The notes below the pieces were generated by a model. That model was not told the origin of the DNA and ran no database searches. It saw nothing but the letters and a program-made list of their open reading frames with translations. From NCBI RefSeq assembly GCF_044324875.1, contig NZ_CP172185.1: a DNA stretch of 64,000 nucleotides; one strand, given 5' to 3'. The number at the start of each line of letters is the position of its first letter. Position 1 is the first letter of the stretch. The translations under genes were made by a program, and so were the position numbers. The stretch comes from Escherichia coli (GTDB lineage: Bacteria; Pseudomonadota; Gammaproteobacteria; Enterobacterales; Enterobacteriaceae). Below, piece after piece: positions 13,877-41,593 of this stretch.

Positions 13877-14332
13877 TCATTTTAAATCTATATATAACAT
13901 TTTCCCTGCAAGCAAGGCCAATTCTGATTTAAAACCCTTTCCGGCCAAGAAAGCCATTTGAAGTTCTCGTAAATTATCCATGGTTTTAGAAATATCATCA
14001 TTTGAGTTAGATGATAGATAAATATTGCACCTAGATTGCAATTCATTAAAGGCTCTGATAATCAACTTTCTATTAACATAACCTTCATCATTTTCTAAAT
14101 TCTTTGGCATAGAAATCAAAGTATTATTATACTCAATGATAGCATCCATCAATTTCAATTTTTTGTCTTCATTATACTGTTTTTTCCATTGCCCTAATGC
14201 GAGAAAACCCACAATCCCTGCGAACAAAGTAACTCCAATACTCGCCAGACTCACAAGAGCAGAAAATTTAGCCCAAAATGCAGCATCTCTGTTAGCTACA
14301 AGAGTTTCATAAGCAATATAAGTAGCGTCCAT
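13877..14332 (-). CDS. Hypothetical single-pass membrane protein (AT-rich cargo)
   Basis: 151-aa ORF with one hydrophobic helix, very AT-rich, in bor-equivalent moron position. Confidence 0.45.
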   Translation of the reverse strand: MDATYIAYETLVANRDAAFWAKFSALVSLASIGVTLFAGIVGFLALGQWKKQYNEDKKLKLMDAIIEYNNTLISMPKNLENDEGYVNRKLIIRAFNELQSRCNIYLSSNSNDDISKTMDNLRELQMAFLAGKGFKSELALLAGKMLYIDLK

Positions 14333-14448
14333 TTACACCTCACTTTATTTTAGAGGTGATTATAGCAAATTACATTCAATCAGGGCTGTACAGTTTTTTA
14401 TCAATTATACTTCGCCATCTCGCTATTATATAACAATATCTTTACATA

Positions 14449-15078
14449 TTGATGGCGTGCCAGCACAATACTGTCACGTACAACCATTCGGATTACTCAG
14501 AGAAAAGTATGATTCAGGATTTACTGATCGAAGCAATTAGTCACGATAGGATGCATAAAAAGTTAAATGAACTGAATTGCTACTTCTACAATCGCAAACA
14601 TGAAACACAAATACGTGATGAGTTAGTTGTTATAATCAATCAAATCAGCACACTAACTGCTTTAAGTGAGCATCCAAAACTCGGTATCGGCGCTGTTGAC
14701 ATATCACTTTATAACCAGTCGATATTGACGCCTGAACATAATGGCAATGTTGCAACCATCGAGATAAAACATCATTACCCAAAAGATTTGCTTTATCGGC
14801 AGGTTCAAGAAGATATCACTTCCGATATTTCAAGAGTAATAGTTTCACCAACTACACACTTTATCCATATAATCCAGCAAAGAACCAGAATTAAAACTCC
14901 TTCTTTTGGTCAAGTGAAATTCCTTGAACGTGATGCAAGTGATATCAGCACTTATGTGCAATATCTTGAGGAGCTAAGTTCATTTCCCAGTAATTTTCAT
15001 AAAAAAAGTGTATGTATTGAGGTAATTGGTGAAATTATGTCGACATATACCTTTAACGTATATTCATTTGACAACTGA
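14449..15078 (+). CDS. Hypothetical protein (AT-rich cargo, opposite to late genes)
   Basis: 209-aa ORF, AT-rich, divergent from 13877-14332; true start may be internal Met near 14509. Confidence 0.45.
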   Translation: MMACQHNTVTYNHSDYSEKSMIQDLLIEAISHDRMHKKLNELNCYFYNRKHETQIRDELVVIINQISTLTALSEHPKLGIGAVDISLYNQSILTPEHNGNVATIEIKHHYPKDLLYRQVQEDITSDISRVIVSPTTHFIHIIQQRTRIKTPSFGQVKFLERDASDISTYVQYLEELSSFPSNFHKKSVCIEVIGEIMSTYTFNVYSFDN

Positions 15079-15099
15079 TTAAACTGTCAATTTTATTGC

Positions 15100-15357
15100 T
15101 TAATGGTTAGTTCTCTCTGAATCTATTTTACGAATGTCAGCTTTATCTCGATTGCAGTTAGCCAGCGCAGACAACAGACTCACATTCAACTCCAGACTAG
15201 CACCATACGTCAGCGGATTAGGTATAAACGGTACAGGAGTATCAGAAGTCAGGCTGGCTGGCAGTGGTGCCACCGGAGCGCTCACGTAAACCGTCCGCGA
15301 ATTTCCGCAACCGGTCAGCAGCGGCAGCAGGCACATGACGTGAAGCACAATCATCAT
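15100..15357 (-). CDS. Rz1: Rz1-type outer-membrane lipoprotein spanin (o-spanin)
   Basis: Lipobox LLTGC and proline-rich tail in alternative frame overlapping 3' end of Rz. Confidence 0.6.
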   Translation of the reverse strand: MMIVLHVMCLLPLLTGCGNSRTVYVSAPVAPLPASLTSDTPVPFIPNPLTYGASLELNVSLLSALANCNRDKADIRKIDSERTNH

Positions 15358-15634
15358 CCGTAACAGCCACTTTGATATCTTCCTGGGTTCTCTGTGACTC
15401 CAGTGCGATCTGCTGTTTTGCATGCTGGTTAGCCTCCAGAACTGTATTGACGATTTGTAGTGATTGCAGGACGTTATTGGTAATGGCAGTTGCTGATTCA
15501 GCATTTCGTACAGCCTCATCAGCACGTTTCTTTTCGTACTGATATTTGCTGTAGTAGTGGTTGGCTGACCAGATGAAAGAACCAATGACAGTAACGAAGA
15601 AAGCAGCGATAACCAGCTTATAGCTCAACTTCAT
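15242..15634 (-). CDS. Rz: Rz-type inner-membrane spanin (i-spanin)
   Basis: 130-aa ORF with N-terminal TM helix and coiled coil, directly after endolysin. Confidence 0.7.
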   Translation of the reverse strand: MKLSYKLVIAAFFVTVIGSFIWSANHYYSKYQYEKKRADEAVRNAESATAITNNVLQSLQIVNTVLEANQHAKQQIALESQRTQEDIKVAVTDDDCASRHVPAAAADRLRKFADGLRERSGGTTASQPDF

Positions 15635-16094
15635 TTACCACCCCACCAGCCTCTTTAAACCGGGCAATCAGGTCACCGATTTTATGTTCATACTGACCGT
15701 AACCAGCACCCGGCAGTGAAGCCCAGATATTGCTGCAACGGTCGATTGCCTGACGGATATCACCGCGATCAATCATCGGTAAAGCGCCACGCTCTTTAAT
15801 CTGCTGCAGAGCTACAGCGTCCTGGCTTTCTGGAGAAAAATCTTTCAGGCCAAGCTGTTTACGGTAAGCATCCCACCAGCGTGAAAGAAGCTGGTAACGT
15901 CCGGCGGCTGTTGATTTGAGTTTGGGGTTTAGCGTGACAAGTTTGCGAGGGTGATCGGAGTAATCAGTGAACAGTTCACCACCAACAATAACATCATAAC
16001 CGTGGTTACGTGTCGGTTGTCGCCCGTTATCCGTTCCTTCTGACCATGCCACCATATCGAGGAAAGCTTTACGCTGGGAATTTAGTACCTGCAT
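15618..16094 (-). CDS. R: Endolysin, lambda R-type lytic transglycosylase
   Basis: 158-aa ORF near-identical over most of its length to recalled lambda R (NQRKAFLDM...AWSEGTDNGRQ...). Confidence 0.9.
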   Translation of the reverse strand: MQVLNSQRKAFLDMVAWSEGTDNGRQPTRNHGYDVIVGGELFTDYSDHPRKLVTLNPKLKSTAAGRYQLLSRWWDAYRKQLGLKDFSPESQDAVALQQIKERGALPMIDRGDIRQAIDRCSNIWASLPGAGYGQYEHKIGDLIARFKEAGGVVNEVEL

Positions 16095-16097
16095 AAA

Positions 16098-16424
16098 TTA
16101 CTCCTTAGAGCCACCAAACTTATTACCGATTACTCTCATTGCAGCCCCACGAATAGCATCGACACCGATCAGCCCCACCCCACCACCAATGGCAACAGAA
16201 AGCGATTTAGGCCATCCGACATACTCAAGAGCGGATGCAAAAGTCAGCGTCAGAGCGCCACAGAGTAGAATTTCGAGTGTTTTTCGCTTCCAGCCACCAC
16301 CACCGCCAAAATAGGCAATGCGCAAGCCAGCCATAACGATCGACATAATCACTGCGCCCAGTGGTGTGTCTCCACGCCACCAGCTCTGGACCAACTCCAG
16401 CCAGGTATTTGGGTTATGAGGCAT
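16098..16424 (-). CDS. S: Holin, lambda S-like class I
   Basis: 108-aa ORF with three hydrophobic segments and charged C-terminus, immediately upstream of R. Confidence 0.75.
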   Translation of the reverse strand: MPHNPNTWLELVQSWWRGDTPLGAVIMSIVMAGLRIAYFGGGGGWKRKTLEILLCGALTLTFASALEYVGWPKSLSVAIGGGVGLIGVDAIRGAAMRVIGNKFGGSKE

Positions 16425-16564
16425 TTGTAGTTATCTCTCACCTCGCCGATACAGGAGGTGCAAATTGAGGGAGTACCACGAACCGCAAACCAGAAGCGGA
16501 AACGTAAAAGAAGCCGAGCCAATGGATAAGTACTAGATAGACCAAGCCCAACGAATACCAAGGC

Positions 16565-16598
16565 CCAGAAATGACAAAACCCGCTCGACGGCGGGTTT
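16565..16598 (-). terminator. Intrinsic terminator upstream of holin (tR'-like)
   Basis: Hairpin AAACCCGC-cgtcga-GCGGGTTT followed by T-rich tract on minus strand. Confidence 0.5.
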
Positions 16599-16755
16599 AA
16601 GCTGTGTGGCAAAGTAACCACTCTTAACACGATATAATACTTTTTGCGTACGCGTTAACTTTTTCTGTAGTATTTAGTGTAAGATTCTTCACAAGATAGA
16701 TACTTTGGAGTACATGATGTAAAGTGCTGTATGCATAAACAGTACAAAGGATATC

Positions 16756-17277
16756 ATGATGAACAAATTAGCACGCTTATTATTAACAGCCAGCTCAATT
16801 GCACCTGTTTGCGCAACTCTATTTTTTATTGGATATGTAAAAGATACGGTTTGGCTGATGCAATATAGCTTATGCGTTGGCATAGCAAGTTGGTTATTAG
16901 CAATAGGCCTGATTCAATATGCTGAGAAACAACTTGAACCTCTGACAAAAAATATTAGTTCAGTTTCTCCCGCTAACAAAGAAGTAACTAATTATTTCTT
17001 AAGCTATTTATTCCCTCTCCTAGGAACAGATTCTATTGCTGAAAATAAAGCATATGCGTTATTCTTTTATTTATCATTGTTATTTTACATCAGCTTTTCC
17101 GAGAACTATAACTTTAACCCAGTATTGTCACTTATCGGTTATAAATTTTACGAAGCTGAAGATGACACCGGCGTAGGTTTTGTATTGATTTCTAAATCAG
17201 TTATTACTGATATTAAAGATATCAAATTTACAGTTATTCAATTAACAGACTACACATTTCTACATGTTAAAGGATAA
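16756..17277 (+). CDS. Multi-pass membrane protein, first gene of AT-rich cargo cassette
   Basis: 173-aa ORF with 3-4 hydrophobic helices, AAGGA ribosome-binding site, opposite strand to flanking late genes. Confidence 0.6.
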   Translation: MMNKLARLLLTASSIAPVCATLFFIGYVKDTVWLMQYSLCVGIASWLLAIGLIQYAEKQLEPLTKNISSVSPANKEVTNYFLSYLFPLLGTDSIAENKAYALFFYLSLLFYISFSENYNFNPVLSLIGYKFYEAEDDTGVGFVLISKSVITDIKDIKFTVIQLTDYTFLHVKG

Positions 17278-17282
17278 TAACC

Positions 17283-18167
17283 ATGGCACTTTTTGCAGTA
17301 ATAGATAATACAATTGCAACGAGAATTGTTAGAGTCGAACTTGATGCAACAGCAAGTACTTCTGTTACGGCCATTTTCCAACAACAGCGTCAATATTTTG
17401 AAAGTCATCATAACAATATGATACCATTCTATGCCGGTTATACACCAAAACATAGTGAGTGTTTTGAAATACAAAACTTTACTGATTCTGCACGCCTGAT
17501 TGACGCAGTCAATAGGCCTACCGCCGTGCCTATCTGGGATCCTAGCCAAATTGATATTGGTTATATTAAAGCATTATTTGTTGGTGTTGACGCGCCAGCA
17601 AACCCCAATATTATTGCACTACAAACTTTCAACAAAAAACAAATCTTAGATACCTCAAAATCATTCTTTGGAAAGCTTTTTGCAAGCAAAACTACCTTTA
17701 GTAAAGCTAATAGCATCGGTTTTAATGTTGATGATAAACTAGTTGCAATAATTATCAATGATACAATACGATTTAAGAGTTTCTTTAATCTAAGAAGCAT
17801 TTTTGACATGTCGTCCTATTTTTCTGCTGCTACTGACCAAGAACTTAATGCATTTAGTCAACTTAGTGTATTTTCTACTCCCCAAGGTTTTGATCTAAAA
17901 TCCGTTGCAGATACAGTGATAAGAAATAAAGTAACACTAATAAATCAGACTGGGATGCTAACACCCCAAAATATGTCAAAGTTTAAATCCGAAGCTGCTA
18001 AAGTTAATTTCCCCTTACAAACCATAATAGTTGGCGGTGTTGAGAAAATTGTCATGCCTTCATCAAAAAAAGAAATAAAAGCCCTTCTTGACTTTCTTGA
18101 GGAAGACATTTGGGTTTCTGGAATAAGTGGAAGACGCTTTAAATCGAATTCAAAGCGCCCAATATAA
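17283..18167 (+). CDS. Hypothetical soluble protein, second gene of cargo cassette
   Basis: 294-aa ORF starting 5 nt after the preceding stop with its own AAAGGA ribosome-binding site; AT-rich. Confidence 0.6.
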   Translation: MALFAVIDNTIATRIVRVELDATASTSVTAIFQQQRQYFESHHNNMIPFYAGYTPKHSECFEIQNFTDSARLIDAVNRPTAVPIWDPSQIDIGYIKALFVGVDAPANPNIIALQTFNKKQILDTSKSFFGKLFASKTTFSKANSIGFNVDDKLVAIIINDTIRFKSFFNLRSIFDMSSYFSAATDQELNAFSQLSVFSTPQGFDLKSVADTVIRNKVTLINQTGMLTPQNMSKFKSEAAKVNFPLQTIIVGGVEKIVMPSSKKEIKALLDFLEEDIWVSGISGRRFKSNSKRPI

Positions 18168-18188
18168 CTAGAAGACAGTTAAGAATAG

Positions 18189-18551
18189 TTAACAGGCAAG
18201 AGTGCAAACAATGCCTTCAATGAAACCAAGCGATGTTTGCAACTCTTTCCTGATAGTCCCATCCGAACACTTTCTCTTCTTAGCAATGGCTCGCAATGAA
18301 ATCCCTACCACAAAATGGGCTATAACTAACTCATACTCTTCTGGTTTGTACTTTCTTAATCTAGCTACGCACCCATCGATCATGAGCCCCTCATCATCAT
18401 CACACTGAATCCGGGACTTTTTGCCATGAGGTAAAAGCCCCTTGAAGCCAGCGGCTACCGGTTGCCAGTCCACTCCGCTATTGTCTGAAGCAGCCCAAGC
18501 TCCCCAACGATCCATCACTTCATACATATCACGCATCAACTTTCTCCACAA
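18189..18551 (-). CDS. Late-gene antiterminator Q (DLP12 QuuD-like); start probably at Met 18533
   Basis: ORF shares the WGAWAA...AAGFKGL...CSDG pattern of the small Q family as recalled. Confidence 0.75.
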   Translation of the reverse strand: MWRKLMRDMYEVMDRWGAWAASDNSGVDWQPVAAGFKGLLPHGKKSRIQCDDDEGLMIDGCVARLRKYKPEEYELVIAHFVVGISLRAIAKKRKCSDGTIRKELQTSLGFIEGIVCTLAC

Positions 18552-18553
18552 AA

Positions 18554-19549
18554 TCAGGCCAGTACGCCAATTGCCAGCGCACGATCGATAAAACGAAATA
18601 TCAGCTCCAGCTGAGAGCCATACTTCTCTTCAAATGCCACGGTATCCGCATGCAGCTCGTCGTGATGCTTTCTGCACAAAGGCAACACAAAGAGGTCATG
18701 CGCTTTTGTACCCATTCCACCCTGACCGTGGCCTATCAGATGGTGGGGATCATCAGCAGGCTTTCCACAACATGCACACGGCTGTGTCTTAACCCAGCGC
18801 GTGTACTTTTCATTAACCCAGCGGCGGCTTTTTGGGCGTAACATAAAAGACTCCGGCGACTCCGGATCCACTTTCAGCGCCAGCACCTTTTTCGCTTTAT
18901 CCAGGATGATGCTGGTGGCAGGAACCGAAGGCACAAGGTCACTTTCCCGGGTGACAGACGGCACAACAGGTTTCGGTAATCTCAGCGCCTTACGGGCTGC
19001 GCTTTCAGGTAAGGCATCCGCCAGGTCATTACGAATCAGCCACCAGCACAGTTCCGGCATTGTCACGGCATGGTTATCATCAGAATCGAGATCCCGACGG
19101 ACTACAGACAACACCCAACGGGCACAGTTATCCGTTGCCATTGATTCCAGCCGCTCCGTGAACTGATCACGTAACTGATTATCGCAGTGCCAGCACAGAC
19201 GGATTGCACCCGGCGCGTGTCGCATTGTGGTCATGTTCTCGCTGTGCCAGTCGGAATGAGGCCACTGGCAGCCTTTTTCACGAAGTAACCAGCTTTCAAG
19301 ACATTCCAACCCACCAGCACGACGAATCACTGCCTCATTACGGAACACGGCCCGAACGGCAGGATCATCCGCCAGCGGTTGTGATGCCGCCGGAACGGCA
19401 CCACTGGCGAAAGATGAATAACGTTCCGGCTCAGGCTCCAGCAGGACACGCCCCTGCATAAACAGGGGCATCAGCTCTGAACCTGGCCTGAACAATACGA
19501 TCCCCATACGCGGGGCAATTTCAGGGGTCAGTAGCGCTCTCACGGTCAC
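18554..19549 (-). CDS. DUF968-family prophage protein
   Basis: 331-aa ORF with C-terminal Cys/His cluster CACCGKP...HHLIGHGQGGMG typical of this prophage family. Confidence 0.6.
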   Translation of the reverse strand: MTVRALLTPEIAPRMGIVLFRPGSELMPLFMQGRVLLEPEPERYSSFASGAVPAASQPLADDPAVRAVFRNEAVIRRAGGLECLESWLLREKGCQWPHSDWHSENMTTMRHAPGAIRLCWHCDNQLRDQFTERLESMATDNCARWVLSVVRRDLDSDDNHAVTMPELCWWLIRNDLADALPESAARKALRLPKPVVPSVTRESDLVPSVPATSIILDKAKKVLALKVDPESPESFMLRPKSRRWVNEKYTRWVKTQPCACCGKPADDPHHLIGHGQGGMGTKAHDLFVLPLCRKHHDELHADTVAFEEKYGSQLELIFRFIDRALAIGVLA

Positions 19550-19550
19550 C

Positions 19551-20381
19551 TCAATGAACGGTATCGAGCAGCTTTAACAGCTCAGGGAACCGGGATTCGA
19601 AGAAATGCGGCTGCGTCTCGCGCGGATTTGCGGGACTGGTGATGTTCTTGCCGAACATGCAGCCTTTCGCCGTCAGCGACCAGAATTTTTTGATGTTGTT
19701 AATCGCAGTGCGGCTGTATCGTTCACGTTGTTCAACGATCCCCAGCTTCGCCATCTGGTGATATGCCTGATTAGCTGTCAGGCGGATACCATACTGCTTC
19801 AGCAGTGCACTCAGTGACAGCGTGGGGCGGCTTGAGCCATCAGGCGCGTCAGCAGGAGCATCAATGGCATAGCGCGGTGCCAGATTCGGTAAGCCAACAG
19901 CCTCCTGGAGTTTCTGACAGGCACCAAGCACTGAAGAGTTAGACAGGTTTAATTCCCGGCGCATAAAGTCCAGCAGAATCACACCAGCCTGCATCTTGTC
20001 AGCAGCCTGTCCGGATAATTTTTCCGGTGCGCTGGTTACCATGTCGAAAGTACGGATCACCTTCAGATGGAATGACGGGCTTATCCACATTGCATAGGCA
20101 TACACCAGTTCTTTGCAGACATACGTCCCCTGGTTATTTCCGCCACGAATAACGTTAACTGGCTCTATATTGACCGAGTTGCAAATCTGCAACTCGCTTA
20201 TTAAACGTTCAGTTTGCTCATTGCGGAGCCAGAATGCAGGCTTATGCTTATCCAGAGAACCGGCAGCCCTGTGCAGATCGTTCAGGCTGTAACGACCATA
20301 AGCATCACGACGAACTTCAATACCATCAATGACCATCAGATTATTCATACTTCGTTTCTCCTCTTGATCAGGCGGCTGCAC
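19551..20381 (-). CDS. KilA-N domain protein
   Basis: N-terminal VIDGIEVRRDAYGRYSLNDLHRAAG motif of the KilA-N DNA-binding domain. Confidence 0.7.
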   Translation of the reverse strand: MQPPDQEEKRSMNNLMVIDGIEVRRDAYGRYSLNDLHRAAGSLDKHKPAFWLRNEQTERLISELQICNSVNIEPVNVIRGGNNQGTYVCKELVYAYAMWISPSFHLKVIRTFDMVTSAPEKLSGQAADKMQAGVILLDFMRRELNLSNSSVLGACQKLQEAVGLPNLAPRYAIDAPADAPDGSSRPTLSLSALLKQYGIRLTANQAYHQMAKLGIVEQRERYSRTAINNIKKFWSLTAKGCMFGKNITSPANPRETQPHFFESRFPELLKLLDTVH

Positions 20382-28304: not shown

Positions 28305-29173
28305 CTCATGTAGTTAGTTTTTCTGGCGGGAGAACATCCGCATATCTTGTTCACCTGATGGAAGAACAAAGAAAGGCTGGCAATAACGTCTGCTACATCT
28401 TTATGGATACCGGTTGCGAACATCCGCTGACATACCGCTTTATCCGGGAGGTTGTGAAGTTCTGGGACATACCACTAACTGTGTTACAGGTCGATATAAA
28501 TCCTGAGCTTGGGCAGCCAAATGGTTATACAGAATGGGAGCCAACGGATATTCAGACACGAATGCCGGTGCTTAAACCGTTTATGGACATGGTTAAAAAG
28601 TACGGCACGCCATACATCGGCGGCGCGTTCTGTACTGACAGGCTAAAACTCATCCCTTTCACGAAATACTGCGATAACCATTTCGGGCGAGGTAATTACA
28701 TCACATGGCTGGGTATTCGTGCAGACGAACCCCGTAGGCTGAAACCGAAATCGGGCGTCCGGTATCTTGCCGAGCTGTCAGATTTTGATAAGTCGGATGT
28801 TATCCGGTGGTGGCGAAAACAACCTTTTGATTTGCAAATCCCGGAGCATCTCGGGAACTGTGTTTTCTGCATCAAAAAGTCAACGCAAAAGCTGGGGCTT
28901 GCATGTAAAGACGAACCAGGTCTGATGCGAGTTTTTAATGAGCTGGTTACAGGCAAACACGTCAGGGATGGTCATCGCAGAACAGGTAAAGACATTATGT
29001 ACCGTGGTCACCTGACGCTTGACGGAATTGCCAGAATGTCTGCCAACAGCGACTACAGAAATTTGTATCAGGCGATGGTACAGGCCAGGCGATTCGATAC
29101 CGGCTCGTGTTCAGAGTCATGTGAAATCTGGGGTGATCAATTGGAATTGGAATTCGAAGAGGTAGGGGTATGA
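28295..29173 (+). CDS. PAPS reductase-like PP-loop protein
   Basis: 292-aa ORF with N-terminal SFSGGRTS PP-loop ATP-pyrophosphatase motif. Confidence 0.7.
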   Translation: MCITHVVSFSGGRTSAYLVHLMEEQRKAGNNVCYIFMDTGCEHPLTYRFIREVVKFWDIPLTVLQVDINPELGQPNGYTEWEPTDIQTRMPVLKPFMDMVKKYGTPYIGGAFCTDRLKLIPFTKYCDNHFGRGNYITWLGIRADEPRRLKPKSGVRYLAELSDFDKSDVIRWWRKQPFDLQIPEHLGNCVFCIKKSTQKLGLACKDEPGLMRVFNELVTGKHVRDGHRRTGKDIMYRGHLTLDGIARMSANSDYRNLYQAMVQARRFDTGSCSESCEIWGDQLELEFEEVGV

Positions 29174-29514
29174 CAACCGAAATTAACTACCATGCACTGC
29201 TTGAGCGCGCACGGAATAAAGTGCAGAGCATTGAGTTCGCCTTAACACAGAGTGCATTCGCTGAGATTCGCGCTGAGCTTGAAAATGATTTAGAACTGGC
29301 ACGGATTGCACTGGCATCTCTGGAAGTTGAGCCAGATGAACGCGCAGCCTATGAATTATTTATGGAAAAGCGTTTCGGTAAAACAGTCGATCGTCGGAGA
29401 GCAAAAAACGGCGATAACGAATACATGGCATGGGATATGACTCTCGGTTGGATCATCTGGCAGCAACGAGCTGGTATCCATTTTTCAACAATGTCACAAC
29501 AAGAGGTGAAATAA
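29170..29514 (+). CDS. Hypothetical protein
   Basis: 114-aa ORF overlapping previous stop by 4 nt. Confidence 0.45.
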   Translation: MTTEINYHALLERARNKVQSIEFALTQSAFAEIRAELENDLELARIALASLEVEPDERAAYELFMEKRFGKTVDRRRAKNGDNEYMAWDMTLGWIIWQQRAGIHFSTMSQQEVK

Positions 29515-29628
29515 TAGAGCCATACAGCCTCACACTCGATGAGGCCTGTTCATTGCTCAATGATATCCAGACCTACCATCGCCGCATCAATGCGGCTTTT
29601 TCTTGCGTGTAATTGCGGAGACTTTGCG

Positions 29629-29847
29629 ATGTACTTGACACTTCAGGAGTGGAACGCTCGCCAGCGACGCCCAAGAAGCCTTGAAACAGTTCGTCGATGG
29701 GTGCGCGAATGCAGGATATTCCCTCCTCCGGTTAAGGATGGAAGAGAGTATCTGTTCCACGAATCAGCGGTAAAGGTTGACTTAAATCGACCAGTAACAG
29801 GTAGCCTTTTGAAGAGGATCAGAAATGGGAAGAAGGCGAAGTCATGA
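29629..29847 (+). CDS. xis: Excisionase Xis (lambda)
   Basis: 72-aa product MYLTLQEWNARQRRPRSLETVRRW... matches lambda Xis as recalled. Confidence 0.9.
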   Translation: MYLTLQEWNARQRRPRSLETVRRWVRECRIFPPPVKDGREYLFHESAVKVDLNRPVTGSLLKRIRNGKKAKS

Positions 29848-30895
29848 GCGCCGGGATTTACCCCCTAACCTTTATATAAGAAACAATGGATATTACTGCT
29901 ACAGGGACCCAAGGACGGGTAAAGAGTTCGGATTAGGCAGAGACAGGAGGATAGCAATTACTGAAGCAATACAGGCAAACATTGAGTTATTTTCAGGACA
30001 CAAACACAAGCCTCTGACAGCGAGAATCAACAGTGATAATTCTGTTACGTTACATTCATGGCTTGATCGCTACGAAAAAATCCTCGCCAGCAGAGGAATC
30101 AAGCAGAAGACACTTATAAATTACATGAGCAAAATTAAAGCAATAAGGAGGGGGCTACCTGATGTTCCACTTGAAGACATCACCACAAAAGAAATTGCAG
30201 CAATGCTCAATGGATACATAGACGAGGGCAAGGCGGCGTCAGCCAAGTTAATCAGATCAACACTGAGCGATGCATTCCGAGAGGCAATAGCTGAAGGCCA
30301 TATAACAACAAACCCGGTCGCTGCCACTCGCGCAGCAAAATCAGAGGTAAGGAGATCAAGACTTACGGCTGACGAATACCTGAAAATTTATCAAGCAGCA
30401 GAATCATCACCATGTTGGCTTAGACTTGCAATGGAACTGGCTGTTGTTACCGGGCAGCGAGTTGGTGATTTATGCGAAATGAAGTGGTCTGATATCGTAG
30501 ATGGATATCTTTATGTCGAGCAAAGCAAAACAGGCGTAAAAATTGCCATCCCAACAGCATTGCATGTTGATGCTCTCGGAATATCAATGAAGGAAACACT
30601 TGATAAATGCAAAGAGATTCTTGGCGGAGAAACCATAATTGCATCTACTCGTCGCGAACCGCTTTCATCCGGCACAGTATCAAGGTATTTTATGCGCGCA
30701 CGAAAAGCATCAGGTCTTTCCTTCGAAGGGGATCCGCCTACCTTTCACGAGTTGCGCAGTTTGTCTGCAAGACTCTATGAGAAGCAGATAAGCGATAAGT
30801 TTGCTCAACATCTTCTCGGGCATAAGTCGGACACCATGGCATCACAGTATCGTGATGACAGAGGCAGGGAGTGGGACAAAATTGAAATCAAATAA
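29825..30895 (+). CDS. int: Integrase Int (lambda, tyrosine recombinase)
   Basis: 356-aa product MGRRRSHERRDLPPNLYIRNNGYYCYRDPRTGKEF... matches lambda Int as recalled. Confidence 0.95.
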   Translation: MGRRRSHERRDLPPNLYIRNNGYYCYRDPRTGKEFGLGRDRRIAITEAIQANIELFSGHKHKPLTARINSDNSVTLHSWLDRYEKILASRGIKQKTLINYMSKIKAIRRGLPDVPLEDITTKEIAAMLNGYIDEGKAASAKLIRSTLSDAFREAIAEGHITTNPVAATRAAKSEVRRSRLTADEYLKIYQAAESSPCWLRLAMELAVVTGQRVGDLCEMKWSDIVDGYLYVEQSKTGVKIAIPTALHVDALGISMKETLDKCKEILGGETIIASTRREPLSSGTVSRYFMRARKASGLSFEGDPPTFHELRSLSARLYEKQISDKFAQHLLGHKSDTMASQYRDDRGREWDKIEIK

Positions 30896-31029: not shown

Positions 31030-32313
31030 GTGAACACATTTTCAGTTTCCCGTCTGGCGCTGGCATTGGCTTTTGGCGTGACGCTGACCGCCTGTAGCTC
31101 AACACCACCCGATCAACGTCCTTCTGATCAAACCGCGCCTGGTACCTCTTCTCGCCCGATTCTGTCGGCAAAAGAAGCGCAGAATTTCGATGCTCAACAC
31201 TATTTTGCGTCCCTGACGCCAGGTGCTGCAGCGTGGAATCCTTCCCCGATTTCCCTGCCTGCGCAACCTGACTTTGTTGTCGGCCCGGCAGGTACTCAAG
31301 GTGTAACGCATACCACGATTCAGGCGGCGGTAGATGCGGCAATTATCAAGCGTACCAACAAGCGCCAGTATATTGCCGTGATGCCTGGTGAGTATCAGGG
31401 AACGGTGTATGTCCCTGCTGCTCCGGGTGGAATTACTCTGTACGGTACAGGTGAAAAACCGATTGATGTGAAGATTGGGCTTTCCCTTGATGGGGGCATG
31501 AGCCCTGCCGACTGGCGTCACGACGTCAACCCGCGCGGCAAATATATGCCAGGTAAACCAGCGTGGTATATGTACGATAGCTGCCAGAGCAAACGCAGCG
31601 ACAGTATCGGTGTTCTCTGCTCTGCGGTCTTCTGGTCACAAAACAATGGCCTGCAACTGCAAAATCTGACCATCGAAAACACGCTGGGCGATAGCGTAGA
31701 TGCGGGTAACCATCCGGCGGTGGCACTGCGTACTGATGGTGACAAAGTGCAGATCAATAACGTCAACATTCTCGGTCGTCAGAATACCTTCTTTGTCACC
31801 AACAGTGGTGTGCAAAACCGTCTGGAAACCAACCGTCAGCCGCGTACTCTGGTGACCAACAGTTACATTGAAGGGGATGTGGATATCGTTTCTGGTCGCG
31901 GCGCAGTGGTGTTCGATAATACCGAATTCCGCGTGGTGAACTCTCGTACTCAGCAAGAAGCTTATGTGTTTGCACCGGCAACACTGTCTAACATCTATTA
32001 CGGTTTCCTCGCCGTAAACAGCCGTTTCAATGCTTCAGGTGATGGCGTGGCGCAACTGGGCCGCTCGCTGGATGTTGATGCTAATACCAACGGTCAGGTG
32101 GTGATCCGTGATAGTGCCATCAACGAAGGTTTTAACACGGCGAAACCGTGGGCCGATGCGGTGATTTCCAATCGTCCGTTTGCGGGTAACACCGGCAGCG
32201 TTGATGATAACGACGAAGTACAGCGTAATCTGAATGACACTAACTACAACCGCATGTGGGAATACAATAACCGCGGCGTGGGTAGCAAAGTGGTTGCAGA
32301 GGCGAAGAAGTAA
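31030..32313 (+). CDS. ybhC: Outer-membrane lipoprotein YbhC (pectinesterase-like), GTG start
   Basis: 427-aa product with lipoprotein signal LTACSS; K-12 synteny. Confidence 0.9.
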   Translation: MNTFSVSRLALALAFGVTLTACSSTPPDQRPSDQTAPGTSSRPILSAKEAQNFDAQHYFASLTPGAAAWNPSPISLPAQPDFVVGPAGTQGVTHTTIQAAVDAAIIKRTNKRQYIAVMPGEYQGTVYVPAAPGGITLYGTGEKPIDVKIGLSLDGGMSPADWRHDVNPRGKYMPGKPAWYMYDSCQSKRSDSIGVLCSAVFWSQNNGLQLQNLTIENTLGDSVDAGNHPAVALRTDGDKVQINNVNILGRQNTFFVTNSGVQNRLETNRQPRTLVTNSYIEGDVDIVSGRGAVVFDNTEFRVVNSRTQQEAYVFAPATLSNIYYGFLAVNSRFNASGDGVAQLGRSLDVDANTNGQVVIRDSAINEGFNTAKPWADAVISNRPFAGNTGSVDDNDEVQRNLNDTNYNRMWEYNNRGVGSKVVAEAKK

Positions 32314-32384
32314 AAAAGAAAACCCGATAGTCTGAACCATCGGGTTAATGAAACTGGGCGCTATATTTCATAGCGCCTTTTTTT
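32312..32384. terminator. Convergent intrinsic terminators between ybhC and ybhJ
   Basis: Two hairpins (32321-32348 and 32357-32384) with flanking A/T runs. Confidence 0.55.
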
Positions 32385-34644
32385 ACATCTGACGGTTTTT
32401 ATTGAAGTTAATCAAACTACCCGCCTTGATAATCTCGCGCTCTTCAGCAGTCAGACTTTCCATATAGAGCGTAATCTCTGTTACTGGCGCATCTTCATGG
32501 ATCACATAACCCTTAAACGTCGTACCCGGATTATCCAGCGCCGCTTTAATGCCAGGGATGTAAATGTAATCCCCCACTTCAAACGTTGGTGCTTCCGCCA
32601 TCTGCAGCGGTAACATCCCCCAGTTGATGACGTTAGAACGGTAGCGTTTAGTCGCGTACTCCTCGGCAATATTCGCCAGACCGCCAATCACACGCTGGCA
32701 GCTCGCCGCCTGCTCACGCGCAGAACCATCGCCTGGTTTCACCGCATAGACCATGCTGCCAATTTCAGTTTGCAGCGGATCAATATGCTCCTGACCAGCA
32801 ATCTGCTTAATGCGCGCAAACACCTCTGTCAGCTCGCTGACATTCCCCGCCAGACGCTGATTTTCCAGCTCAGCAGTCACTTTACTTCTGCCAACATAAC
32901 CGGGATCGCGGCGTGACAGGGTAAACTCCGCCAGACCAATCGGATTTGAACGATAAGAAGAGGTTTCACCGGAAGGGATCAGTTCGTCGGTGGTGGTCAC
33001 TTCGTCGAGGATCTTCGAGCACACTTTGAGGACGATATTGTCAGTCAGCGCCCCCAATTCCGGCCAGTCTTTAATGTTCGGTCCGTAAATCAGCGGTTGC
33101 TGAGTTGCCCCTTTCACAAAGCCCTGATAAACACGGTTTTTATACGGCGTTACATCGAAGGCGTACTCCGGCACGTTGTCCCAGCAATCGAGTTCGCTGG
33201 CAGAAGTTAAATAGCCACCGTTTGCCGCAGTCGCAGCGATAGAACGAGCGTCCATCAACGCCACCGCTGACATCTGCCCATTGGCTGGCTTAGAGCCTTC
33301 GCGGTTCGGGAAGTTACGCGTGGTGTGGCGAATACTCAAACCGTTGTTGATTGGCGTATCGCCCGCGCCAAAGCATGGGCCGCAGAACGCGGTTCTGATG
33401 ATTGCGCCTGCGCCAATCAAATCTGCTACCACACCTTTTTTGGCGAGATCCATAAACACCGGCTGTGATGACGGGTAAACCGCTAACGAGAAGGTGTCAT
33501 TGCCACAGGATTGACCGCGCAGTGCATTCGCCGCCGCGATGACGTTTTCGTAGTTACCGCCAGAACAGCCCGCGATAATCCCCTGCTGCACTTTCAGGCG
33601 ACCATTTTCCACTTTATCCAGCAGCGAGAGTTTGGCTTTACCGTGCGCCACGCGTTCGGACTCAATTTCAATCTCACGCAGAATGTCGGTCAGGTTCTGG
33701 TTCAGCGTGTCGATTTCATACACGTTGCTCGGGTGAAACGGCAGCGCAATCATTGGTTTGATGGCGCTTAAATCAACGCTGATGCAGCCATCGTAGTACG
33801 CCATCGGTTGAGGGTTAAGCTGGCAGTAATCCTGGCCGCGACCGTGCAGCGCCAGCCAGTTATGGACTTCTTCATCGGTTTGCCAGACAGAACTTAAACA
33901 GGTCGTTTCAGTGGTCATAACGTCAACGCTGTTACGGAAATCGGTAGAGAGCGCAGCAACACCGGGACCTACGAATTCCATCACTTTGTTTTTGACGTAG
34001 CCGTTTTTGAACACGGCACCGATGATAGCCAGCGCCACATCCTGTGGCCCCACATACGGCGCTGGTTTTCCGGTCAGATGCACCGCAACAACTCCCGGAT
34101 AGTCGATATCCCAGGTGTCATTAAGCAATTGTTTTACCAACTCGCCGCCGCCCTCACCGACTGCCATTGTCCCTAATGCACCGTAACGGGTGTGGCTGTC
34201 TGACCCGAGGATCATTTTGCCGCCGCCTGCCATCATCTCACGCATATATTGATGGATGACCGCAATATGCGGAGGCACAAAAATACCGCCATAACGCTGC
34301 GCTGCCGATAAACCAAAAACATGGTCATCACCGTTAATGGTGCCGCCGACGGCGCAAAGTGAGTTATGGCAGTTGGTCAGCACATACGGCAGCGGGAAAC
34401 GTTCCATACCGGACGCTTTAGCAGTCTGTACAATCCCAACAAAGGTAATATCGTGAGAGGCTAATGAATTAAACTTAATTTTAAGTTTATCCATATTTCC
34501 GGACGTATTATGAGAAGAGAGAATAGACCAGGCAATAGTGCCTTTTTTGGCTTCTTCTTTTTTAATTTCGCCGGTGAAATGTTCTTCGGCAATTATTTCG
34601 TTATTACTGGCGAGAAACACGCCTTTTTCAGATAACTTGATCAT
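32383..34644 (-). CDS. ybhJ: Aconitase-family protein YbhJ
   Basis: 753-aa product from Met 34644 with GGAG ribosome-binding site; K-12 synteny. Confidence 0.85.
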
Positions 34645-34721
34645 CAAATGCTCCAGATATCTGCGCACCGAGAAGTGCGCAGAAAGATAATAAATGGATA
34701 TACTCTAAATAATTAGAGTTG

Positions 34722-34826
34722 CAGGAAGGCGACTAGCGAGTGAATCCCCAGGCGCTTACATAAGTAAGTGACTGGGGTGAGCGAACGCAGACGCAGCACA
34801 TGCAACTTGAAGTATGACGAGTATAT
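34722..34826. repeat. ERIC-like intergenic repeat element
   Basis: GTGAATCCCCAGGCGCTTACATAAGTAAGTGACTGGGGTGAGCGAACGCAG... matches the enterobacterial repetitive intergenic consensus as recalled. Confidence 0.6.
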
Positions 34827-36260
34827 TTACAGCATGTTCCAGCCGATCAGCATATTCCACCACCACACACCGAGGGTGATATGTACCAGGAAGGTTAATA
34901 TCGTCAGTACCGCACCGACCAACCACCAGGATTTAATATCGTTGTAACCCACGCCAAAGATGACCGGACCTGCCGCGCCGCCATAGTGAGTAACCATGCC
35001 GCCATAGGAGTTGGAGAACAACAGTGCCAGCGCGGTTAACATTAACGGTGCGCCGGAGACGTTCGCCAGCATGGCAAATACCGGTAACATAGCAACGATA
35101 TAGGCACTACCGGAAGCGAAGAAATAACGAACGATGATGCTGAGGAAAATAATAACGAAGAAAGCAACGTTACCGTGACCATCAAATGCCAGGTTATTTT
35201 TAAAGACTTCAGCTAACCATTCGAAGAATTTAACTTTCGATAATAAGGAGCTTAAGCCGATAATACCGCCGTACCAGATTAAGGTATTCCAGCCGCCTTT
35301 ATTTTTAACCACGTCTTCCCAGGTAACGATACCCAGCAGCAGCATAGTCGCCATAACAACGATTGCCACGGTGGATTCATCAACCCCCAGTGACTTACTG
35401 AAAATCCAGCCCAGCAGCGCCAGCACGAAGACACCGAGCAGCATTTTTTCGCGGATTTTCATCGGTCCCAGTTCGGCAAGGCCCGCTTTGGCGATAGTTT
35501 TGTTATCCACCTTCTTAATTTCTGGCGGATACATGGTGTAAATCACCAGCGGGGTGACCAGCAGCATAATGATACCCGGCAATCCGGCGGCCAGCGCCCA
35601 TCCACCCCAGCTAATTTGCAGGTGCAGAATGTCGTTGATCATTTTCAGCGCCAGAATGTTCCCCGCCATTGCGGTAAAGAACATATAGCTGGTGGTTTTG
35701 GTGACCATGTAAATGGACATCATCAGGTAATGTCCGACACGACGCGGGCTTTTTTCAGGTTCTGACCCCAAAGCCACCGCCACGCTGTTGATGATCGGTA
35801 ACACAATGCCGCCCGCACGCGCGGTGTTAGACGGTGTTGCCGGAGCCAGTACCAGATCGAGAAATACCGTAACGTAACCCAGGCCCAGGGTAGTGCTACC
35901 AATTTTACCAATCAGCAAATAGGCAATACGTTTACCTAAGCCGGTGGTCACAAATGCGGCGCTTAAGGTAAACGCCGAGAACACCAGCCAGGTGGTACCT
36001 GAAGAGTAACCGCTTAATACGGCGGTGGTTTTAAACGCACCGTCGGATAAGTTACCGACCACCACCATGGAGGCAGCAACGGCAATTAACAGTACGACAG
36101 GTTCCGGGAAAGGCTTGATAACCAGCCCCACAATGGCCGCCAGGTAAATACCAAAAAGCACCCACGCCAGTTCGCTTAATCCTGCCGGAGCTGGCATAAA
36201 GCCAATAATACATGGGATCGCTAATATCAGAATTAGCTTCCATAACGATTTTTTATTCAT
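34827..36260 (-). CDS. ybhI: Anion permease YbhI (DASS family)
   Basis: 477-aa polytopic membrane protein; K-12 synteny. Confidence 0.9.
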   Translation of the reverse strand: MNKKSLWKLILILAIPCIIGFMPAPAGLSELAWVLFGIYLAAIVGLVIKPFPEPVVLLIAVAASMVVVGNLSDGAFKTTAVLSGYSSGTTWLVFSAFTLSAAFVTTGLGKRIAYLLIGKIGSTTLGLGYVTVFLDLVLAPATPSNTARAGGIVLPIINSVAVALGSEPEKSPRRVGHYLMMSIYMVTKTTSYMFFTAMAGNILALKMINDILHLQISWGGWALAAGLPGIIMLLVTPLVIYTMYPPEIKKVDNKTIAKAGLAELGPMKIREKMLLGVFVLALLGWIFSKSLGVDESTVAIVVMATMLLLGIVTWEDVVKNKGGWNTLIWYGGIIGLSSLLSKVKFFEWLAEVFKNNLAFDGHGNVAFFVIIFLSIIVRYFFASGSAYIVAMLPVFAMLANVSGAPLMLTALALLFSNSYGGMVTHYGGAAGPVIFGVGYNDIKSWWLVGAVLTILTFLVHITLGVWWWNMLIGWNML

Positions 36261-36335
36261 TTAAAATCCTGTTCTTTCTGTATGACTCATACAGAAGTCC
36301 TTTATTGATTGTCCTTATCCTGACAACGAATTTTT

Positions 36336-37388
36336 TCAGGGAAGAAAAACTTCACCGGAAAATATTTTTCTGGTTGTCCGAATAACAGATGCGCGTAACG
36401 TCGTGGCATCCTGACCTTCATTACTTAAATGAACGTCGAGCGCACCACTGGGGTGTTCAATATTGATATTGCCGTATCCTACAGAAGGGACGATTTGTCG
36501 GGTGACGGTGCCTTCCAATGCACAACTACTGGAAATGGCAATAGCACCGGTTATCGCCAGCGCGCGATGGCAAGAATGCGGCATAAAATAACGCACATTA
36601 ATTGCTCCGCCTTTCTGCGCTGGAGAAATAAGCACAGGTTTAGGGATAACCATATTACTGACATCGCCTAATCCCATTGCTTTACCCGCTTGTAGACGGA
36701 TAGATTCAATGCGGGCTAATAATGCTTTGTCGGCATCCAGCTCCGCCGGTAATTCATAGCCTGTTTTTCCCAGATATTCAGCAGGAATAATGACAACTGG
36801 CATCGCCATATCGATACAGGTCACCGGGACATCGTCAAAATAATCAATCTGATTATCAGTCGGGAAGATTTTTCCGGTTTTGGTTCCGGCGGCATTCAGG
36901 AAAGTGAGCGCAACCGGTGCGGCAGTACCCGGTACGCCGTCAATTCTGGCGCTACCCTCGTACTCGACAACACCATTTGGCGTTTGCACATCAGCTTCGA
37001 TGAACGTACCCGTATTGACGTTGCGGATACGTACGCGGGTAACTGGCGAAGTCGCTGCAATCAAACCATTTTCAATGGCGAATGCCCCAACCCCAGACAA
37101 CATATTGCCGCAGTTTGGTGTTGTATCGACACGCTGCTCATGGACAATAACCTGAGCAAACAGATAATCGACATCAGCACGCGGATCGTCGGAATGGCTA
37201 ATAATGGCGACTTTACTGGTCAGCGGATTACCGCCGCCAATACCGTCAATTTCCAGATCGTTACCGGAACCCATAATTGCCATCAATATTTTATCGCGCT
37301 GCGTTTGATCTTCGGGTAGATGTTCCGCTAACAGGAACGCGCCCCTCGAGGTTCCCCCTCTCATCATCACGCAGGGTATTTTTTTCAT
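36336..37388 (-). CDS. ybhH: PrpF-family isomerase YbhH
   Basis: 350-aa product; K-12 synteny. Confidence 0.9.
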   Translation of the reverse strand: MKKIPCVMMRGGTSRGAFLLAEHLPEDQTQRDKILMAIMGSGNDLEIDGIGGGNPLTSKVAIISHSDDPRADVDYLFAQVIVHEQRVDTTPNCGNMLSGVGAFAIENGLIAATSPVTRVRIRNVNTGTFIEADVQTPNGVVEYEGSARIDGVPGTAAPVALTFLNAAGTKTGKIFPTDNQIDYFDDVPVTCIDMAMPVVIIPAEYLGKTGYELPAELDADKALLARIESIRLQAGKAMGLGDVSNMVIPKPVLISPAQKGGAINVRYFMPHSCHRALAITGAIAISSSCALEGTVTRQIVPSVGYGNINIEHPSGALDVHLSNEGQDATTLRASVIRTTRKIFSGEVFLP

Positions 37389-40534: not shown

Positions 40535-41593
40535 TCAGGCGGTTATCGACACACTTTTAATTTGCGCGTACAGCCACAGGCCAGGTTTGATCGCCAGTTC
40601 ATCCCTGGCCCACGGGCTGATACGCGCCCACAGCGTTTTACCGCCGACTTCCAGCTCCACTTCCACCTGGCCGTTGTCGTCATAACTATTAACAACTTTT
40701 GCCCGCAATACGTTACGAATGCTGGTTTGCTGCGGCGGTTGTAAAACCAGAGAAACATCGGAAGCCTGAATGCGGATACGTAGCGCAGCTTGCAGCGGTT
40801 CGTCCAGCTTATTAACCCACAAATGCTGATCGCCCAGCGCCAGCGCGGTCATCGCGTAATGCGGATGATGCTCAAGCACCGTCACTTTCAGAATGCTACT
40901 TTGTTGCTCTTTCGGCAGCCACGGATTCATCACGCTACTGCCCCACACTTCCTCCAGCGCGCCAAAGGCTTTCACCTGACCGTTTTCCAGTACCATCACT
41001 CTGTCTGCCAGATGGAGGATCTCATCCAGCGAATGGCTGACATACAACATCGGAATGTTGATTTCCCGTGTCAGCCGTTGCAGATAAGGCAACAGTTCGC
41101 GTTTACGCGGAATATCCAGTGACGCCAGCGGTTCATCCAGCAACAGCAATTCCGGTGCTGTCAGCAAAGCCCGACCAATCGCCACGCGCTGTTTTTCGCC
41201 TCCGGAAAGGCTGCCCGGTAAACGCTCAAGAAACGGTTCAATGCCTAAAAGCGCCACCAGCTTATCGAACTGATCGACCATACTTTTCGACATGCCGTAG
41301 CGCAGATTGCCACGCACTTTGTAATGCGGGAACAGCCGCGCATCCTGAAAAACATAGCCAACGCGACGCTTTTCCGGCGTCAGGCAGATACCTTTTTCGG
41401 CATCATTTAGTACCCGCCCATTGAGGACAATCCGCCCTTTTTGCGGACGCGTCAGTCCACTGATGGCGTTAATCAGCGAAGTTTTTCCGGCACCGGAGAC
41501 GCCAAAGATAGCAGTGATGCCATTGGCGGGCAGCGTTTCATTAATGGTCAGGCAATGGTTGCCCAACGTCTGGGAAAAATTCAGTTCCAGCAT
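40535..41593 (-). CDS. modC: Molybdate ABC transporter ATPase
   Basis: 352-aa product with Walker [10 protein letters not shown] and C-terminal MOP domain. Confidence 0.95.

Follow-up and report, generated by a model that had tools for sequence, protein, structure and literature searches.

A predicted Q21/933W-type late-gene switch parted from its antiterminator gene by a Kiwa cassette in an Escherichia coli prophage

Late transcription in phage lambda depends on the pR'/6S RNA/tR' unit, in which a constitutive promoter is followed by early termination and the antiterminator Q loads at a promoter-proximal pause, with a Q-binding element (QBE) placed between the -35 and -10 hexamers (PMC9388147, PMC6266700). 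The curated record of phage 21 shows a Q stop codon separated by 7 nucleotides (nt) from the -35 hexamer TTGACA, a start 42 nt after that stop, a pause element at +2 to +8 and a terminator at +3 to +50. In the Shiga toxin (Stx) phage VT2-Sakai, the start of the pR' transcript, mapped by differential RNA sequencing (dRNA-seq), and its 3' end, mapped by Term-seq, lie 257 nt apart (PMC7547250). The stretch of E. coli DNA analysed here (64,000 nt, hereafter the window) carries in a prophage a late-gene region that follows the same logic. We consider it probable, at roughly three chances in four, that the minus strand of 16565-16664 is the complete cis-acting half of a late-gene switch of the Q21/933W type, parted from its Q gene by a cassette that encodes the Kiwa anti-phage system; this reading was reached by comparison of sequences.

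On the minus strand of the window, genes for RusA, KilA-N, DUF968 and Q are followed by two plus-strand genes and then by holin S, endolysin and spanins, and 16425-16755 is the sole noncoding stretch upstream of the holin. The initial annotation had argued that the late promoter cannot follow Q and must sit in that stretch, a claim supported by the conserved pR' core found there, which is homologous to the VT2-Sakai late promoter; its coordinates for the end of Q (18189), the 21 base pairs (bp) behind it, the noncoding stretch and a minus-strand hairpin were all correct. A block of about 90 nt is conserved across the window, DLP12, Shigella phage SfII, phage cdtI, mEp460 and an Stx2a phage, relatives that were retrieved by flanking homology and not by the element itself, and its nearly invariant core reads TGTTAAGAGTGGTTACTTyGCCACACAGCTTAAACCCGCCGTCGAGCGGGTTTT. 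By BLAST, the sequence from 16425 to about 16658 is widespread, and that from about 16659 to 16755 is found only along with the Kiwa cassette. In a sensitive search, 362 phage records contained a match to the block, VT2-Sakai among them, where the depositors had labelled the matching bases "putative late promoter", "putative Q-utilization" and "possible rho-independent terminator". The core region is also matched in 2,364 of 5,426 complete E. coli genomes. Within the 64-kb window TGTTAAGAGTGGTTACTTTGCCACACAG occurs once, versus 0 copies expected by chance.

The position of the start follows from the same homology. The Sakai start was placed by spacing and not by absolute coordinates (the published mapping used an older version of the genome record; PMC7547250): with the U-tract of the second Sakai terminator at 1166-1171 of the retrieved Sakai locus (L007), the start falls at 914 ± 1, which is 7 nt after the annotated -10 hexamer TATCAT. 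A standard promoter scan of 16425-16755, demanding 9 of 12 consensus matches, reported no promoter on either strand. With the threshold relaxed to 7-8 of 12 matches, TTAACG-18-TATCGT was the best minus-strand promoter match in 16425-16755 and predicted the same start, 16622. Positions A2 and T6 of the -10 hexamer are in register in all aligned relatives. On this side of the cargo junction, conserved backbone sequence ends with the A-tract AAAAA, which immediately precedes the -35 hexamer. The element is recognised as a sigma-70 late promoter by homology only. Within the core, a -10-like TACTTT at +7 to +12 is a candidate sigma-dependent pause element; it reads TACATT in Sakai and TACTTC, without the final T, in many relatives. 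The core at 16602-16621 (minus strand) also holds, at +2 to +17 of the predicted RNA, an inverted repeat GUGG...CCAC that may fold into a small hairpin at the 5' end of the nascent RNA; the GUGG...UCAC of DLP12 retains a G-U pair. A plus-strand promoter inside the conserved module was considered and rejected as a general feature: a perfect TATAAT is present at 16633-16638, but it lacks a usable -35 and is not conserved in the relatives.

The antiterminator gene belongs to the family expected for such a switch, as the window Q matches PF06530 over nearly the whole profile. Its stop codon (18189-18191, minus strand) lies 1,567 nt from the predicted start, compared with 13-52 nt in relatives without cargo and 42 nt in phage 21, and Q and promoter are therefore not immediate neighbours here. 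The generality of this separation was seen in IMG/VR, which yielded 120 loci when scanned with the core pattern; in 107 of those with the core a PF06530 Q is found upstream on the same strand. The Q stop is within 60 nt of the start in only 18 of the 107 loci, and in 89 the two are 0.6-2.9 kb apart. Because relatives without cargo start the element 13-52 nt after the Q stop, the Q-pR' unit can be regarded as otherwise contiguous and split by the cargo. In one such relative (L059), whose Q is 85% identical to that of the window, the Q stop is followed directly by GTTATGAAAAAATCACTAACGCGTACGC and homology to the window resumes at the A-tract, about -45, so that the Kiwa cassette occupies the place of the few bases between the Q stop and about -45. 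Moreover, the last 7-10 residues of Q vary with each cargo, which sets the left junction just inside the 3' end of the gene. The split layout is the majority state of this promoter family, found also in DLP12 of K-12, and is thus ordinary and not peculiar to this phage.

Between the -35 and -10 hexamers lies an inverted repeat of 8-11 bp that differs between Q clusters and is constant within them, the match holding in 107/107 loci. In the QuuD/933W cluster (n = 47) this dyad is TACGTACGTA, TACGATCGTA or TACAATCGTA, in the Stx2_14040/cdtI cluster (n = 29) it is GCGGTCCGC, and in the cluster of the window (n = 25) it is GCGTACGC; the minor clusters 3 (n = 4), 4 (n = 1) and 5 (n = 1) carry TGTTATAACA, TTCGTTACGAA and GGAATTCC, respectively. 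The changes from one cluster to another preserve the symmetry of the motif. Each of the three large clusters includes 12-15 different cargo sizes and, past the hairpin, three or four classes of shuffled downstream sequence. The Q proteins are conserved across clusters in their N-terminal two-thirds, and a C-terminal segment resembling a helix-turn-helix (HTH) is cluster-specific, for instance ISLRAIAKKRKCSDGTIRKELQ versus ISKRQIARTRKKSEKAIRIEMQ versus MTFMSLAGKHCCSDGYIGKRLQ. The match between dyad and Q cluster, the cluster-specific HTH-like segment and the location of the QBE within the spacer in both phage 21 and lambda make the spacer dyad a likely candidate for the Q-binding element. A second dyad-like match (GACGCGTCCGCAAAAA, two mismatches) at 41438-41453 on the minus strand lies inside gabT and was taken as chance.

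Downstream of the start, the hairpin AAACCCGC-CGTCGA-GCGGGTTT (16598-16577, minus strand; +25 to +46) is followed by TGTCATTTCT, and its U-rich tail ends near 16565, at about +58. The hairpin forms in both the minimum-free-energy and the centroid folds of the leader. The initial annotation had described a tR'-like terminator about 130 bp upstream of S; the hairpin is there, with the stem ending 153 nt and the T-rich tail 141 nt upstream of the S start codon. The terminator scan of the window is not enriched (6 sites found versus 5.5 expected). That the hairpin is more than chance is argued by its position, which is kept in dozens of related loci that retain the GC core of the stem and differ in the loop (CGTCGA, CGCGA, CGATGC, CGCTGA, GCCACCT), and by one locus (L124) in which an unrelated 13-bp stem replaces it at the same place. 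It also stands at the position of the phage 21 terminator. We hold it rather probable that the hairpin is tR', the predicted late-gene terminator, and if this assignment holds the terminated RNA would measure about 50 nt. A scan of 14000-20000 against Rfam gave only two chance microRNA matches by E-value, with no known RNA family over the leader.

Taken by analogy with phage 21, lambda and 933W, these parts suggest how the switch would work. Host sigma-70 RNA polymerase would start constitutively near 16622 from TTAACG-18-TATCGT with its upstream A-tract, and in the lysogen transcription would stop at the +25 to +46 hairpin, giving an RNA of about 50 nt and leaving S, R and Rz silent. After induction, Q made from the early rightward operon would recognise the subtype-specific dyad GCGTACGC in the spacer and load on polymerase paused in the conserved initial transcribed region, and the complex would pass the hairpin into the lysis and morphogenesis genes. 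The Kiwa cassette (1.5 kb, between the Q stop and the A-tract) would be transcribed in the direction leading away from pR', and its own promoter presumably lies in 16665-16755. With Kiwa facing away from pR', defence expression in the lysogen and late transcription would diverge from about 110 bp and not collide. The coordinates of all these features are collected in Table 1.

Table 1. Features of the late-gene region and of the cassette that splits it, in window coordinates.
Feature	Position	Strand	Basis or remark
Spanins	about 15109-15634	-	downstream of endolysin; RefSeq
Endolysin	15618-16094	-	downstream of S; RefSeq
Holin S, lambda family, first late gene	16098-16424	-	PF05106; RefSeq
Rest of late leader to S start codon	16425-16564	-	terminator scan and leader fold
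tR'-like hairpin and U-rich tail UUUUGUCAUUUCU (predicted)	16565-16598	-	terminator scan, leader fold, comparison; d score 0.6
Conserved core TGTTAAGAGTGGTTACTTTGCCACACAG, -7 to +21, includes start site	16602-16629	-	single exact copy in window
Predicted late start, A of TAAG-A-GTGG, ± 1-2 nt	16622	-	homologous to position 914 of L007
pR' -10 hexamer TATCGT, -12 to -7	16629-16634	-	aligns with annotated Sakai -10 TATCAT
Dyad motif GCGTACGC, -31 to -24, candidate Q-binding element for the Q subtype of the window	16646-16653	-	Q-cluster match, QBE position in phage 21, HTH-like segment of Q
pR' -35 hexamer TTAACG, -36 to -31	16653-16658	-	aligns with annotated VT2-Sakai -35 region
A-tract AAAAA, UP-element-like, -42 to -38	16660-16664	-	present in loci with and without cargo
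Low-GC Kiwa cassette (upstream region, kwaA, kwaB)	16661-18188	+	discrete inserted unit, 1,528 bp
Best candidate Kiwa promoter TAGATA-17-TAAAGT	16697-16725	+	relaxed consensus scan, 8/12; prediction only
kwaA, membrane component of Kiwa	16756-17277	+	PADLOC KwaA, E = 1.9e-83
kwaB, DUF4868 component of Kiwa	17283-18167	+	PADLOC KwaB, E = 2.3e-150; Pfam PF16162
Gap between convergent stops of Q and kwaB	18168-18188		21 bp; sequence and terminator scan
Antiterminator Q, Q21/933W family	18189-18536	-	PF06530, E = 1.5e-45, 113/118 profile positions; RefSeq

Several points weigh against the proposed switch. Of the 12 consensus positions the promoter has only 8, and its spacer is 18 bp long. The related loci from IMG/VR were retrieved by the exact core pattern, which makes core conservation circular in that sample; the alignments obtained by flanking homology, in which the core is conserved as well, are unaffected. 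In the hairpin, the U-tract is interrupted (UUUUGUCAUUUCU) and the d'Aubenton-Carafa score (d) of 0.6 is borderline, compared with 8.1 for the DLP12 hairpin, 22.0 for the first Sakai hairpin, 24.1 for the Sakai tR' at +258 and 29.3 for the phage 21 tR'. The 3' end of the Sakai pR' transcript was mapped by Term-seq at +258, not at the hairpin homologous to that of the window (PMC7547250), which means that at least some transcripts pass the homologous first hairpin. In Sakai itself, that first hairpin (940-962 of L007) scores d = 22, yet the published 3' end is the second terminator (1143-1171 of L007); either the first hairpin is leaky so near the promoter or a product of about 50 nt was missed in detection. 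The putative terminator that the initial annotation had seen is a real and conserved hairpin, with a borderline score and a Sakai homologue that is not the mapped 3' end.

These last observations are what would be expected if pR' were as proposed and the +25 to +46 hairpin were not the main late terminator but a pause or RNA-stability element, or a partial terminator, with S, R and Rz silenced via Rho, a weak promoter or control of holin translation. We regard this as unlikely. A second terminator was sought by scan and fold between the hairpin and S and none was convincing, the only candidate being a long weak structure followed by CUUCUUUU, with an estimated score well short of the terminator threshold. 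If nothing stopped transcription, a constitutive pR' would switch on the lysis genes, holin and endolysin included, and it is this point together with the lack of any other intrinsic terminator found before S that keeps the tR' assignment in place. In phage 21 the documented terminator occupies the same promoter-proximal position, a hairpin is kept in the relatives even where its sequence has been replaced, and RNAs of about 50 nt would be easily lost from RNA-seq libraries.

With respect to the dyad, the phage 21 QBE, as given in the GenBank annotation, consists of two direct repeats (ATTGAGCA and AATGAGCA) at -27 to -12, whereas the motif of the window is an inverted repeat centred near -27.5, further upstream and further from the -10 hexamer. 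The dyad also overlaps the -35 hexamer, a typical position for a repressor. No cargo family is common to different Q clusters, and plain linkage could thus contribute to the match between dyad and Q subtype. On another reading the dyad would be the site of another dimeric regulator or a sequence inherited with Q, and Q would instead read the conserved core, for example the direct repeat GTTA-N6-GTTA at -6 to +8. This is in our opinion improbable, since the core does not vary between Q clusters while the presumed recognition segment of Q does, since the changes between clusters (TACGTACGTA, TACGATCGTA, GCGTACGC, GCGGTCCGC, TGTTATAACA, GGAATTCC) are symmetric, and since recombination breaks linkage just downstream and never between Q and dyad. 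Finally, a late start right after Q in textbook lambdoid style, running antisense through Kiwa and leaving the element at 16.6 kb as a relic, could appeal to minus-strand promoter-like matches in the AT-rich Kiwa genes (17758-17731, 17512-17485 and 17332-17305) but is hardly credible, given that such matches are at chance level (12 found versus 11.9 expected), that no second copy of the pR' core or the dyad occurs near Q, that only 21 bp lie between the two stop codons, and that 89/107 loci combine the split layout with an intact element and a matching dyad.

The cassette that splits the proposed switch contains a complete Kiwa system, with kwaA and kwaB adjacent, co-oriented, full length and 5 bp apart, in an operon that converges on Q. 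Its GC content is 0.29-0.40, against about 0.5 in the flanks. The complete 1,528-bp cassette is present at an identity of at least 99% in 32 of 5,426 complete E. coli genomes, and it adjoined the same Q allele in all three carrier genomes inspected (3/3). The cassette-specific DNA upstream of kwaA is limited to 16665-16755. There, the candidate promoter predicts a start at about 16732 and a leader of 24 nt, with the ribosome-binding site AAAGGA before the ATG at 16756. It was missed at the 9-of-12 threshold of the standard scan, and comparison lends it no support, as all copies of the cassette are at least 99% identical. The initial annotation had proposed back-to-back promoters in this region; pR' is well supported, and its Kiwa partner is an 8/12 match below the standard scan threshold. 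If the candidate Kiwa promoter is correct, the Kiwa and late starts would be divergent and about 110 bp apart. In one of the 32 carriers, E. coli ES10 (L132, NZ_CM184320.1), the insertion sequence ISKox3 (ISL3 family) occupies positions 1252-2472 of that locus, corresponding to about 16730 of the window, between the pR' module and kwaA; lying about 25 bp upstream of the kwaA start, it would part the gene from its predicted promoter.

As for the attributes of a phage moron, the cassette has a foreign composition and is a discrete unit, its promoter is predicted, and a terminator after kwaB was not found in the scan. Neither was any terminator detected in the scan of the 21-bp gap between Q and kwaB (18168-18188). 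Other cassettes (L002, L003, L004, L005) carry a GC-rich hairpin between the Q stop and the cargo 3' end, such as AAAAAGGGCATTTCTGCCCTTTTT in cdtI, that looks like a bidirectional terminator; with no such hairpin in the gap of the Kiwa cassette, the Q and kwaB transcripts would run into each other. About 220 nt beyond the Q stop, the minus strand at 17950-17969 carries a terminator-like hairpin (TTGGGGTGTTAGCATCCCAG, then TCTGATTTAT) antisense to kwaB. Transcripts of the early operon might end there, or the hairpin may be a chance match, as the scan is not enriched.

The junction between Q and pR' (Q|pR') serves generally as a site of cargo oriented away from pR', a large part of which relates to defence, and across this cargo the dyad follows the Q subtype. 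By size the inserts form 28 classes, and in 26/28 every open reading frame (ORF) is on the strand opposite to Q and pR'. Their contents include Kiwa, PDC-S20 (KAP-type NTPase), PDC-M53, a cytosine methylase with an OLD/Gabija-like ATPase, an SDH-type protease, a T5orf172 protein and the porin NmpC of DLP12. Four inserts (L034, L040, L087, L099) hold three distinct two-gene cassettes in which an NA37 protein (NdpA-like, nucleoid-associated) is accompanied by a membrane or coiled-coil protein of about 400 amino acids (aa); two of the NA37 pairs were checked against PADLOC without a match, and these pairs are candidates for uncharacterised defence systems with a Kiwa-like layout. Six others (L002, L030, L036, L005, L115, L023) combine a small membrane protein of the multi-pass type with a second protein of about 270-360 aa; the latter is a DUF6731 member in one case and matches no family in the others, and these pairs had no PADLOC match. 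A limited literature search found no paper on the Q|pR' junction as a hotspot or on a spacer dyad that tracks the Q subtype, and novelty is not claimed.

A bolder proposal can be put forward tentatively, which we consider possible though doubtful. In prophages of the Q21/933W type, the gap between the Q stop and the pR' A-tract might be a dedicated hotspot in which defence and conversion cassettes are swapped, almost always facing away from pR', each swap bringing along the last Q codons together with a divergent promoter of the cassette itself. Q would find its distant target via a dyad that co-varies with its recognition helix, with a binding mode unlike that of the direct-repeat QBE of phage 21, and the opposite orientation might let early read-through silence the prophage's own defence at induction.

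The prophage in which the locus is found occupies positions 1 to about 30,000 of the window on the minus strand and is SfII/SfV/CPS-53-like: its modules for regulation and lysis (CI/Cro, Q, S-R-Rz) are lambdoid, and its contractile tail genes are Mu/P2-like. It carries homologues of CPS-53 genes (yfdN-yfdR) and an integrase at 28811-29983. After the prophage, a second island at 31036-36979 contains another integrase, a large recombinase, two ParB-like genes and IS1, and adjoins glaH. With regard to Q itself, counted from its RefSeq start the protein has 115 aa, and with an upstream TTG as start codon the ORF would reach 18551.

These results bear on annotation, on defence discovery and on mechanism. 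Annotation of this large group of E. coli and Shigella prophages should place the late promoter upstream of the core TAAGAGTGGTTAC and not look for it beside Q. The Q|pR' junction is compact and easily recognised, and could anchor a search for new systems. The strict match between Q subtype and dyad gives a testable prediction on Q specificity in the 933W branch, the controller of Shiga toxin expression.

Altogether, the locus can be set beside the systems already described. Phage 21 (GenBank OL657228; PDB 6P18, 6JNX) has a Q of the same family, PF06530. Its parts run from the -35 through the QBE of the spacer, the -10, the start and a -10-like pause element to an intrinsic terminator complete by about +50, and the predicted and candidate parts of the window stand in the same order. 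The DNA of the two cannot be aligned and the window Q matches the solved Q21 structures weakly (E = 6e-4); the only difference in layout is the distance of the element from Q. The Stx phages 933W and VT2-Sakai (Sp5) are homologous to the window at the DNA level from -36 to about +56, covering promoter, core and first hairpin. Unlike in the window, the VT2-Sakai promoter overlaps the 3' end of Q, with a start 22 nt after the stop, and its transcript continues to the second terminator at +258, with the 74-nt Hfq-binding RNA StxS cut from the 3' part. The window has no counterpart of StxS: homology to Sakai ends just after the first hairpin, and the leader runs straight to S without a second terminator.

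DLP12 of E. coli K-12 is similar in having quuD, IS5 and a counter-oriented porin gene, nmpC, ahead of the same pR' core and hairpin and then the essD holin. It differs from the window by its porin cargo, by another Q subtype and dyad (TACGTACGTA), and by an extra 340 bp or so between the nmpC start and pR'. A sigma-E-dependent essD start in DLP12 was reportedly described by Rueggeberg in 2015. It was considered as support for the DLP12 pR' and set aside: the published reporter primer (5' end stated as -121) maps that start to about 4909 of the DLP12 locus (L004), which is about 355 nt ahead of the pR'-like start (4554), and it belongs to a different promoter. In this region (4386-4957 of L004) DLP12 thus apparently has two promoters ahead of its lysis cassette.

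Lambda follows the same logic with an unrelated Q family (PF03589), a terminated RNA of 194 nt and a pR' directly after Q. The predicted switch of the window is of a known kind, in an arrangement already present in DLP12 of K-12, and current understanding is not overturned. Phage morons and the defence hotspots of P2 and P4 (PMC9122126) likewise hold foreign cassettes of variable content at one fixed junction, with many known or candidate defence systems. Unlike those sites, the junction described here falls within a regulatory unit, with an antiterminator gene on one side and the promoter it targets on the other, and its cassettes almost always run in the opposite direction.

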